From: Escherichia coli
GTDB taxonomy: Bacteria; Pseudomonadota; Gammaproteobacteria; Enterobacterales; Enterobacteriaceae
DNA length: 64,000 nt
Assembly (NCBI RefSeq): GCF_046105845.1
Contig: NZ_CP151004.1
Direction: 5' to 3' (one strand)
Position 1 is the stretch's first letter; each line of letters starts with the position of its first letter. This document shows positions 22,483 to 38,945 of the stretch, in pieces. Under the pieces are notes generated by a model. That model was not told where the DNA came from. It did no database searches and worked only from the letters and a program-made list of their open reading frames with translations. The translations under genes were made by a program, and so were the position numbers.

Positions 22483-25400
22483 ATGAATAAGAAATTTAAA
22501 TATAAGAAATCGCTTTTAGCGGCTATTTTGAGCGCAACCCTGTTAGCCGGTTGTGATGGCGGTGGCTCCGGATCTTCCTCCGATACGCCGCCTGTAGATT
22601 CTGGAACAGGGTCTTTGCCGGAAGTGAAACCTGATCCAACACCAAACCCGGAGCCGACGCCTGAGCCAACGCCGGACCCAGAACCAACGCCGGAACCGAC
22701 ACCTGATCCAGAGCCAGAACCGGAGCCAGAACCTGTTCCTACGAAAACGGGTTATCTGACCCTGGGCGGAAGCCAGCGGGTAACTGGTGCTACCTGTAAT
22801 GGTGAATCCAGCGATGGCTTTACATTTACACCTGGTGAGGACGTTACTTGCGTGGCGGGTAACACGACAATTGCCACCTTCAACACTCAGTCAGAAGCTG
22901 CGCGTAGCCTGCGTGCGGTTGAAAAAGTGTCGTTTAGTCTTGAGGACGCGCAAGAACTGGCGGCTTCCGACAATAAGAAAAGCAATGCGGTTTCGCTGGT
23001 AACGTCCAGTAACAGCTGTCCGGCGGATACAGAACAGGTTTGCCTGACGTTCTCCTCGGTGATCGAGAGTAAACGTTTCGACTCGCTGTATAAGCAAATC
23101 GATCTGGCACCGGAAGAGTTCAAAAAGCTGGTCAATGAAGAGGTGGAAAACAATGCTGCGACCGATAAAGCGCCATCCACTCATACCTCACCGGTCGTGC
23201 CTGTCACCACGCCGGGAACAAAACCGGATCTGAACGCTTCCTTCGTGTCGGCTAACGCGGAACAGTTTTATCAGTATCAACCCACTGAAATCATTCTCTC
23301 TGAAGGTCGACTGGTCGATAGCCAGGGATATGGTGTTGCTGGCGTCAACTACTACACCAATTCAGGCCGTGGCGTGACAGGGGAAAATGGTGAATTTTCC
23401 TTTAGCTGGGGCGAAACCATCTCCTTTGGTATCGATACCTTTGAACTGGGGTCAGTGCGCGGCAATAAGTCGACCATTGCATTGACTGAACTGGGTGATG
23501 AAGTTCGCGGGGCGAATATCGATCAGCTTATTCATCGCTATTCGACGACCGGGCAAAATAATACCCGTGTTGTTCCGGACGATGTACGCAAGGTCTTTGC
23601 CGAATATCCCAACGTGATCAACGAGATTATCAATCTCTCGTTATCCAACGGTGCGACGCTGGATGAAGGTGAGCAAGTTGTTAATCTGCCAAACGAATTT
23701 ATTGAGCAGTTTAAGACGGGTCAAGCCAAAGAGATCGATACCGCGATTTGTGCGAAAACCGACGGTTGTAACGAGGCTCGCTGGTTCTCGCTGACGACGC
23801 GCAATGTTAATGACGGCCAGATTCAGGGCGTTATCAACAAGCTGTGGGGTGTGGATACAAGTTACAAATCTGTCAGCAAGTTCCATGTATTCCATGACTC
23901 CACCAACTTCTATGGCAGCACCGGTAATGCGCGCGGTCAGGCGGTGGTGAATATCTCTAACGCGGCCTTCCCGATTCTGATGGCGCGTAATGATAAAAAC
24001 TACTGGCTGGCCTTCGGCGAGAAACGCGCCTGGGATAAAAACGAGCTGGCGTACATTACGGAAGCGCCTTCTCTTGTTGAGCCGGAAAACGTTACGCGCG
24101 ATACCGCCACCTTTAACCTGCCGTTTATTTCGCTGGGGCAAGTCGGTGAGGGCAAACTGATGGTTATCGGTAACCCGCACTACAACAGCATTTTGCGTTG
24201 TCCGAACGGTTACAGCTGGAACGGGGGCGTTAATAAAGACGGGCAGTGTACGCTCAGCGGTGATTCAGATGACATGAAGCACTTCATGCAGAACGTACTG
24301 CGCTATCTGTCCGACGATAAATGGACTCCGGACGCGAAAGCCAGCATGACCGTAGGCACCAACCTGGATACTGTCTATTTCAAACGTCATGGTCAGGTTA
24401 CAGGAAACAGTGCTGAGTTCGGCTTCCATCCGGATTTTGCGGGTATCTCCGTTGAGCATTTAAGTAGCTATGGCGATCTCGACCCGCAGGAAATGCCGCT
24501 GCTGATCCTCAACGGCTTTGAGTATGTGACTCAGGTTGGTAACGATCCTTATGCAATCCCGCTGCGTGCAGATACCAGCAAACCGAAGCTGACTCAGCAG
24601 GATGTGACCGATCTGATCGCCTATCTGAACAAAGGTGGATCGGTGCTGATCATGGAAAACGTGATGAGCAATCTTAAGGAAGAGAGCGCGTCTGGCTTTG
24701 TGCGTCTGCTGGATGCCGCAGGCCTGTCAATGGCACTGAACAAGTCGGTGGTGAATAACGATCCGCAGGGTTATCCGAACCGCGTGCGCCAGCGCCGAGC
24801 GGATGGCATTTGGGTTTATGAACGTTATCCGGTTGTGGAAGGTGCGCTGCCGTACACCATTAATTCTGAGACAGGCGAAGTTACCTGGAAATATCAGATT
24901 GATAACAAACCTGATAAGAAACCGAAGCTGGAAGTTGCCAGTTGGCAAGAAGAGGTTGATGGTGAACAAGTAACTCAATACGCGTTTATTGATGAAGCCG
25001 ACTACAAAACGCCTGAGTTGCTGGCTGCGGCGAAGAAGAGAATTCTGGACGCGTTCCCTGGGCTGGAAGAGTGTAAGGATTCTGACTACCACTACGAGGT
25101 CAACTGTCTGGAATACCGTCCAGGTACGGGGGTTCCGGTTACTGGTGGCATGTATGTTCCACAGTATACGCAACTAAGCCTTAACGCCGACACGGCAAAA
25201 GCGATGGTGCAGGCTGCGGATTTAGGCACCAACATTCAGCGTCTGTATCAGCATGAGCTCTACTTCCGGACCAATGGTCGCAAAGGTGAGCGTCTGAGCA
25301 GCGTCGATCTGGAACGTCTGTACCAGAACATGTCGGTCTGGCTGTGGAACGATACGAGCTATCGTTATGAAGAAGGCAAAAATGACGAGCTGGGCTTTAA

Positions 25401-38408: not shown

Positions 38409-38945
38409 ATGTTACGCGATAAATTTATTCACTATTTTCAGCAATGGCGTGAACGCCAGTTAAGCCGTGGCGAACACTGGCTTACACAACACCTGGCGGG
38501 GCGTTCTCCGCGTGAAAAGGGCATGTTACTGGCAGCGGTGGTGTTCCTGTTTAGCGTCGGATATTACGTCCTCATCTGGCAGCCGTTGAGCGAACGGATA
38601 GAACAACAGGAGACGTTGTTGCAGCAGCTGGTGGCAATGAACACCCGACTGAAGAGCGCCGCGCCGGATATTATTGCGGCGCGAAAATCCGCCACAACAA
38701 CGCCTGCGCAGGTATCTCGGGTCATCAGTGACAGTGCTTCCGTGCACTCAGTGGTCATCAAGCGGATAGCCGAGCGCGGGGAGAATATTCAGGTCTGGAT
38801 AGAACCTGTGGTGTTTAATGACCTGCTGAATTGGCTTAATGCGCTGGATGAAAAGTATGCGCTGCGGGTGACACAAATTGATGTCAGTGCAGGTGAGAAG
38901 CCTGGGATGGTGAATGTGCAGCGGCTGGAGTTTGGAGGGGGGTAA
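38409..38945 (+). CDS. gspM: Type II secretion inner-membrane protein GspM
   Basis: 178 aa; single N-terminal TM; last gene of block. Confidence 0.8.
   Translation: MLRDKFIHYFQQWRERQLSRGEHWLTQHLAGRSPREKGMLLAAVVFLFSVGYYVLIWQPLSERIEQQETLLQQLVAMNTRLKSAAPDIIAARKSATTTPAQVSRVISDSASVHSVVIKRIAERGENIQVWIEPVVFNDLLNWLNALDEKYALRVTQIDVSAGEKPGMVNVQRLEFGGG

Follow-up and report, generated by a model that had tools for sequence, protein, structure and literature searches.

The chromosomal type II secretion system beta (T2SS-beta) of Escherichia coli and its substrate SslE are encoded in one operon in enterotoxigenic E. coli (ETEC) H10407, enteropathogenic E. coli (EPEC) E2348/69, uropathogenic E. coli (UPEC) UTI89 and E. 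coli W. The published operon consists of sslE and the 13 genes downstream of it (PMC5012682). T2SS-dependent secretion was demonstrated for SslE alleles other than the one described here, and the requirement for the prepilin peptidase PppA in E. coli W and H10407 (PMC3707838). A second system, T2SS-alpha (gspC-O in K-12), shares the general Gsp type II architecture but resides at another chromosomal locus, lacks an AspS pilotin, possesses a Klebsiella-type secretin (PMC3542185) and has the chitinase ChiA as substrate (PMC3707838). In another genus, Vibrio cholerae operates the Eps T2SS with an AspS pilotin and possesses the lipoprotein AcfD. The Eps system secretes cholera toxin and many further substrates; acfD is, to our knowledge, located outside the eps operon. 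The locus described here occupies positions 22483-38945 (+) of a 64,000-nt stretch of the E. coli contig NZ_CP151004.1, the whole of which is termed the window. Judged from its sequence, it represents with a probability of about 0.93 a complete and functional chromosomal T2SS-beta operon.

Gene content and order of the locus are those annotated at the T2SS-beta locus in other E. coli genomes. With the operons of the four strains named above it shares the 14-gene content reported in the literature, the site between glcA and pheV, and the lipobox and HEVGH motif of SslE; the differences found are allelic only (at most 97.0 % DNA identity across the locus and a rare mosaic sslE). A Vibrio-type secretin, a pilotin of the AspS family and a substrate of the SslE/AcfD family are shared with the V. 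cholerae Eps system, to which sequence identity is far lower.

The cluster sslE-pppA-gspSβ(yghG/aspS)-gspCDEFGHIJKLM is uninterrupted and its genes are all co-directional (Table 1). The boundaries given by the sequence-only reading, a preceding inspection of the same DNA, proved exact, with the ATG of sslE at 22483 and the stop codon of gspM ending at 38945; its count of thirteen genes was incorrect, as those it listed amount to 14 (sslE, pppA, yghG and eleven from gspC to gspM). Its statement that the genes are full-length was confirmed: each of the 14 open reading frames (ORFs) has a length divisible by three and contains zero internal stops (ORF table and re-translation), and 13 have the length of their PGAP-annotated counterparts in E. 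coli NY1601, the closest complete genome. The remaining gene, sslE, is one codon longer (1516 versus 1515 aa). Re-translation, named beforehand as the check, revealed neither frameshift nor premature stop, and a hidden frameshift or pseudogene was rejected given 13 genes at reference length and a single additional codon in sslE. Amino acid identities of the 14 products to NY1601 range from 96.1 to 100 %.

Overlapping start and stop codons, previously ascribed to all of gspD-M, are present at six of the nine junctions (1 nt at D/E and E/F; 4 nt at H/I, I/J, J/K and K/L), while intervals of 16, 3 and 1 nt lie between F and G, G and H, and L and M, respectively. Upstream of gspD the gaps measure, in gene order from sslE, 147, 65, 17 and 29 nt. 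Five of the 14 genes start with TTG or GTG (gspC at 28484, gspD at 29473, gspH at 34725, gspJ at 35653 and gspL at 37229); together with the overlaps of 1-4 nt, these starts suggest translational coupling and expression at low stoichiometry. An Rfam scan detected zero RNA elements within the locus, and a repeat search of the locus returned nothing beyond the Pro/Glu/Thr linker repeat of SslE and the common N-termini of the pseudopilins.

Curated NCBIfam cut-offs were passed by 12 of the 14 products, the E-values lying between 1e-24 and 0. At E ≤ 1e-5 the NCBIfam scan left PppA and YghG unmatched, a gap resolved via Pfam and PDB; with 12 products past curated cut-offs and these two identified by Pfam and PDB matches, identification of the locus lies far beyond chance. 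PppA matches A24_N_bact (4.6e-34) and Peptidase_A24 (1.2e-23), carries the GMGD motif and two CxxC motifs, and is 98.9 % identical to annotated PppA. The pilotin has the lipobox LSGC and matches T2SSS_2 (2.6e-16); 109 of 112 residues are identical to the ETEC GspS-beta/AspS chain 5zdh_P (PDB 5zdh), and 4ftf of the V. cholerae AspS family is matched with E = 7.5e-6. The secretin GspD scored 1378 bits against its best match 5zdh_A, the partner of that pilotin chain, 731 bits against 5wq8 (second only to E. coli beta-type chains) and 546 bits against 5wq7, 731 bits being the highest score of any other solved T2SS secretin. We take 5wq8 to be the V. cholerae secretin and 5wq7 to be the alpha secretin of E. 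coli K-12. On account of these scores GspD is classified as a Vibrio-type beta secretin of the AspS-dependent class; the AspS dependence of Vibrio-type secretins and the function of the pilotin have been described (PMC3542185).

The ATPase GspE contains Walker A (GPTGSGKS), VGEIRD and two CxxC motifs. GspG to GspL each score above the cut-off of their NCBIfam model. The cleavage-methylation motif GFTLLE is present in GspG, GspH, GspI and GspJ, and the model IV_pilin_GFxxxE scored above cut-off for GspG, GspI and GspJ. The N-terminus of GspK (KRGMALVVVL) lacks Glu at +5, as is typical of GspK. Hence all catalytic and processing motifs checked in SslE, GspE, PppA, GspG-J and the pilotin were found, and the core T2SS set is complete, comprising GspC-M, all past their NCBIfam cut-offs, and the prepilin peptidase. 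By their sequences the parts make up a full type II machine: an inner-membrane platform formed by GspC, GspF, GspL and GspM, GspE as ATPase, pseudopilins (GspG-K), PppA as dedicated prepilin peptidase and GspD-beta with its AspS/GspS-beta pilotin, with SslE as the predicted substrate. The assignment as SslE/T2SS-beta in the sequence-only reading is thus upheld by the NCBIfam models for SslE, GspC and GspM, the pilotin and secretin matches and the glcA-pheV site.

Table 1. Features of the T2SS-beta/SslE locus (window coordinates; scores are given with the cut-off of the respective model where available)
Feature	Position	Strand	Description
sslE upstream region (presumed regulatory)	21998-22482	+	485 nt, AT-rich; starts with glcA terminator hairpin (22005-22035)
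sslE (yghJ)	22483-27033	+	Predicted secreted substrate; 1516-aa lipoprotein, M60-like zinc metalloprotease
Linker repeat in sslE	22617-22743	+	Pro/Glu/Thr-rich imperfect tandem repeat just past the lipobox; direct repeat family D1; PEPTPEPTPDPEPTP...
sslE-pppA spacer	27034-27180		REP-like GC-rich palindromes gccggataaggcgttcacgccgcatccggc, then caggcccgcatccggc (read from sequence)
pppA	27181-27990	+	Prepilin peptidase/N-methyltransferase (GspO-type), 269 aa
gspS-beta (yghG, aspS)	28056-28466	+	Outer-membrane pilotin lipoprotein, 136 aa
gspC	28484-29443	+	TTG start, 319 aa; NF007242 (PRK09681) 734.9 bits (cut-off 561), covering 1-319 of 319
gspD-beta	29473-31533	+	Secretin; GTG start, 686 aa; TIGR02517 552.8 bits (cut-off 351)
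gspE	31533-33026	+	ATPase, 497 aa; TIGR02533 708.5 bits (cut-off 630)
gspF	33026-34249	+	Inner-membrane platform protein, 407 aa; TIGR02120 489.3 bits (cut-off 424)
gspG	34266-34721	+	Major pseudopilin, 151 aa; TIGR01710 192 bits (cut-off 88.9); 100 % identity to NY1601
gspH	34725-35288	+	Minor pseudopilin; GTG start, 187 aa; TIGR01708 186.9 bits
gspI	35285-35656	+	Minor pseudopilin, 123 aa; TIGR01707 86.7 bits
gspJ	35653-36258	+	Minor pseudopilin; GTG start, 201 aa; TIGR01711 176.3 bits
gspK	36255-37232	+	Minor pseudopilin, 325 aa; NF037980 286.2 bits
gspL	37229-38407	+	GTG start, 392 aa; TIGR01709 179.8 bits
gspM (yghD)	38409-38945	+	178 aa; YghD-specific NF007274 404.1 bits (cut-off 352), covering 1-178 of 178
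pheV	39093-39168	-	tRNA-Phe(GAA), ARAGORN and Rfam; downstream boundary of the locus

E. coli K-12 MG1655 carries the remnant yghJ-pppA-yghG-yghF-yghE-yghD at the same site and with the same flanks. It retains full-length yghJ (94.2 % amino acid identity to SslE of the window), pppA and yghG as well as gspM/yghD, but lacks about 8.0 kb corresponding to window 29443-37444, owing to an internal deletion at a TA microhomology (junction inspected; the alignment runs to 29446 and restarts at 37443). This deletion, which agrees with published work (PMC3707838), removes gspD-K and the stop codon of gspC (extending YghF by 12 aa) and, by cutting ~70 codons from the 5' end of gspL, leaves YghE. The comparison with K-12 proposed by the sequence-only reading therefore bears out its view that K-12 retains only remnants with respect to the machine, but not with respect to sslE, pppA and yghG, all three being full-length.

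The distribution of the locus was investigated with a whole-locus query (17.5 kb) against 5426 complete E. coli genomes, a genome being counted if 80 % or more of the query lay together in one place. On this basis the locus is present in 3118 of the 5426 genomes. The gene sslE, searched for alone, is present in 3603. An intact locus is thus the majority state in complete E. coli genomes, and its intactness, rated earlier as marking the strain as non-K-12-like, is correct as a description but uninformative, i.e. a weak strain marker. As that reading also stated, the system is a known one: the five products looked up (SslE, GspC, GspD, GspL and GspM) already carry these names in NCBI, and the exact sequences of GspC and GspD are recorded on roughly 700 to 1000 or more contigs. 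The best whole-locus DNA identity (97.0 %) is below that of the flanks (1-22000 and 39001-64000), which represent ordinary E. coli chromosome with 98.7 % identity to the best-matching genomes and with every checked gene intact. Divergence from NY1601 forms a mosaic: identity per 500-nt bin varies between 88 and 100 % and dips deepest in sslE (24518-25517). An origin outside E. coli, considered because of the 97 % value, was rejected in view of the flank identity, the flank proteins (97-100 %), exact proteins recorded as E. coli and the mosaic pattern, which is as recombination predicts. Ratios of nonsynonymous to synonymous substitution rates (dN/dS) versus NY1601 are 0.063 across the 13 machinery genes and 0.19 for sslE, indicating strong purifying selection.

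SslE matches the family model NF037973 over the whole protein (3481.4 bits, cut-off 3000) and the SslE/AcfD family model NF037974 with 1987 bits (cut-off 800); PDB 23px aligns along its full length. The lipobox LAGC places its cysteine at residue 24. HEVGH is located at residues 1300-1304 with Glu 14 residues past the second His, which fits the zinc-binding motif HEXXHX(8,24)E as defined previously (PMC4014459). Mucinase activity and the HEVGH motif have been shown for other SslE alleles (PMC4014459). A TTG at 22465 was rejected as start codon, because the ATG at 22483 is the start used in annotated proteins, in the NCBIfam profile (positions 1-1519) and by the primers published for cloning and knockout (PMC3707838).

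The gene sslE is highly polymorphic, most genomes showing 87-95 % DNA identity to the copy of the window, and the best full-length identity was 96.9 % (NZ_OZ547043.1). Its central segment 24518-25517 (residues ~680-1010) is hypervariable, with 88-93 % DNA identity to NY1601, and within residues 801-900 identity to K-12 YghJ falls to 77 %. Only one genome, NZ_OZ547043.1, is more than 99 % (99.4 %) identical in this segment; owing to this match the segment is regarded as circulating among alleles rather than as decaying. The exact protein (WP_409023773.1) is present on 3 contigs. With its recombination-like sequence pattern, sslE of the window is a rare mosaic allele, the one mildly unusual feature of the locus. 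SslE lengths within its 90 % cluster vary from 1516 to 1522 aa, and 18 alignment gaps versus NY1601 fall into the 500-nt bin (22518-23017) that holds the Pro/Glu/Thr linker repeat, which suggests that this repeat contributes to the length polymorphism.

The region 5' of sslE is collinear with that upstream of K-12 yghJ apart from a single 1-nt gap, has a GC content of 0.42 (over 22000-22999) and matches with its final 50 nt a published sslE knockout primer (PMC3707838). It is presumed to contain the promoter of the operon and the target region of H-NS, StpA and Fis, operon structure and regulation by these proteins having been described for sslE (PMC5012682). The H-NS-bound region was described for ETEC (PMC5012682), and the sslE upstream region of the window is collinear with those of characterised strains. 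Within the operon, the sslE-pppA spacer interrupts the alignment with K-12 at 27093-27145, the K-12 spacer being ~50 nt longer. Its palindromes are presumably repetitive extragenic palindromic (REP) elements, an assignment based on the REP consensus. The spacer might represent a variable insert of the type of REP or bacterial interspersed mosaic elements (BIME), possibly acting as mRNA stabiliser or partial terminator.

Modelled on published work with ETEC H10407, EPEC E2348/69, UPEC UTI89 and E. coli W, the system would operate as follows. Small or overlapping gene junctions and the AT-rich upstream region are compatible with a single polycistronic mRNA, which would be transcribed from a promoter in that region; H-NS/StpA would repress this promoter when the temperature is low, and at 37 °C Fis would activate it (PMC5012682). 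The pseudopilins, by virtue of their GFTLLE-type motifs, would be cleaved and methylated by PppA. GspE would drive assembly of the pseudopilus on the GspC/F/L/M platform, its general role in T2SS. GspD-beta would be brought to the outer membrane by the AspS pilotin (PMC3542185). Following Sec-dependent export and lipidation at Cys24, SslE would be carried by the T2SS to the cell surface and into the medium, where its M60-like HEXXH zinc-metalloprotease domain may degrade mucins and favour biofilm maturation and colonisation (PMC4014459, PMC8881592, PMC3707838).

Alternative explanations differ in whether they concern the identity, the expression or the substrate of the system. That the locus encodes T2SS-alpha (gspAB/gspC-O, chitinase-secreting) could be entertained inasmuch as the two systems belong to the Gsp type, with generic models for GspD, GspE, GspF and GspG fitting either one. 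This identity was rejected on the secretin scores and the pilotin match and retains a negligible probability: an AspS-type pilotin is present, the YghD-specific model and the PRK09681 model for GspC match end to end, sslE is located directly upstream, and the glcA-pheV site is that of the yghJ-yghD remnant in K-12. A locus that is intact but cryptic, silenced by H-NS/StpA under most conditions and conferring little phenotype as in the low-expressing extraintestinal pathogenic E. coli (ExPEC) EC958, is unlikely. In its favour, the AT-rich stretch upstream of sslE aligns collinearly with the region bound by H-NS in ETEC, and expression varies strongly among strains (PMC5012682). Against this stand the low dN/dS ratios (0.06 and 0.19), which indicate selection for function over evolutionary time, and the conditional rather than permanent nature of silencing in every strain studied.

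An intact machine combined with a rare mosaic SslE of altered function, i.e. with changed specificity, antigenicity or activity, appears very improbable. In its favour are the low best DNA identity of sslE among the 5426 genomes, the divergence of residues 801-900 from K-12 YghJ and the occurrence of the exact protein on just 3 contigs. Lipobox and HEXXHX(8,24)E are intact, however, dN/dS of sslE indicates constraint, and the variable segment recurs almost unchanged in another genome. Published SslE proteins share 86-100 % identity, form two main variants, conserve the motif throughout and are recognised by cross-reactive antibodies (PMC4014459). The narrower proposal, that the allele alters mucin-glycan specificity or permits escape from cross-protective antibodies, would be marginally less probable still; if true, it would bear on SslE-based vaccines. 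The functional T2SS-beta operon remains the preferred reading, and no feature of the sequence speaks against it; the following observations qualify it. A consensus promoter scan found no credible promoter (7 sites versus 13 expected by chance), the matches at 22057-22086 and 22104-22131 not being above chance. The ATG of sslE lacks an obvious Shine-Dalgarno sequence, yet is the experimentally used start according to the published primers. Finally, SslE may carry a loss-of-function missense change, given the rarity of the allele.

The locus is bounded by glcA (20315-21997) on one side and by pheV, followed by yqgA and speC, on the other, a layout that K-12 and annotated E. coli genomes share. 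The stop codon of gspM is separated from pheV by 147 nt (38946-39092); pheV is unoccupied, with no island inserted, and a terminator-like hairpin is located past the tRNA on the minus strand (39084-39056). Several porcine ETEC genomes possess an insertion of ~11 kb (integrase and sulfatase-like genes) somewhere downstream of the position equivalent to window 39045, presumably adjoining pheV. In NY1601 an IS1397-family IS3 element lies between glcA and sslE (L001 4606-5954, corresponding to window ~22018-22025), just past the glcA terminator. The window lacks an insertion sequence between glcA and sslE and thus differs from those relatives that carry IS1397 there or an integrase-bearing insertion near pheV.

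Several further features were observed in the flanks. The glcB-glcA intergenic region contains the small RNA C0719 (20015-20236, minus strand; Rfam, 298 bits versus a gathering score of 50). Next to yghO, a cluster at 1996-11037 comprises genes for lipopolysaccharide biosynthesis (YghQ-like), LptF/LptG-like permeases, serine palmitoyltransferase, an acyl carrier protein, an NAD-epimerase and a fatty acyl-AMP ligase, all of which (annotation from a related genome) are intact in the window with 97.7-100 % amino acid identity; from its gene content it looks like a cluster for biosynthesis and export of a sphingolipid-like lipid. A three-gene tripartite ATP-independent periplasmic (TRAP) transporter (51079-53911, minus strand), composed of a substrate-binding protein and two permeases, one large and one small, is located between yggM and hemW, all genes being intact. 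The product of yggR (57549-58526, plus strand) is an ATPase of the PilT/PilU family that is distantly paralogous to GspE; in tblastn, the gspE region was likewise matched by YggR (39 % identity).

Overall, the system is already known and annotated, and the present copy is ordinary for E. coli. Being found in over half of the complete E. coli genomes, the locus does not separate pathotypes. The strain has the genetic capacity to secrete SslE, which acts in colonisation and biofilm formation and is considered for vaccines. Heat-labile toxin is a further substrate of the T2SS-beta machine where elt genes are present as well; the window contains neither eltAB nor T2SS-alpha. The sslE allele of the window adds one further data point to the documented polymorphism of this antigen.

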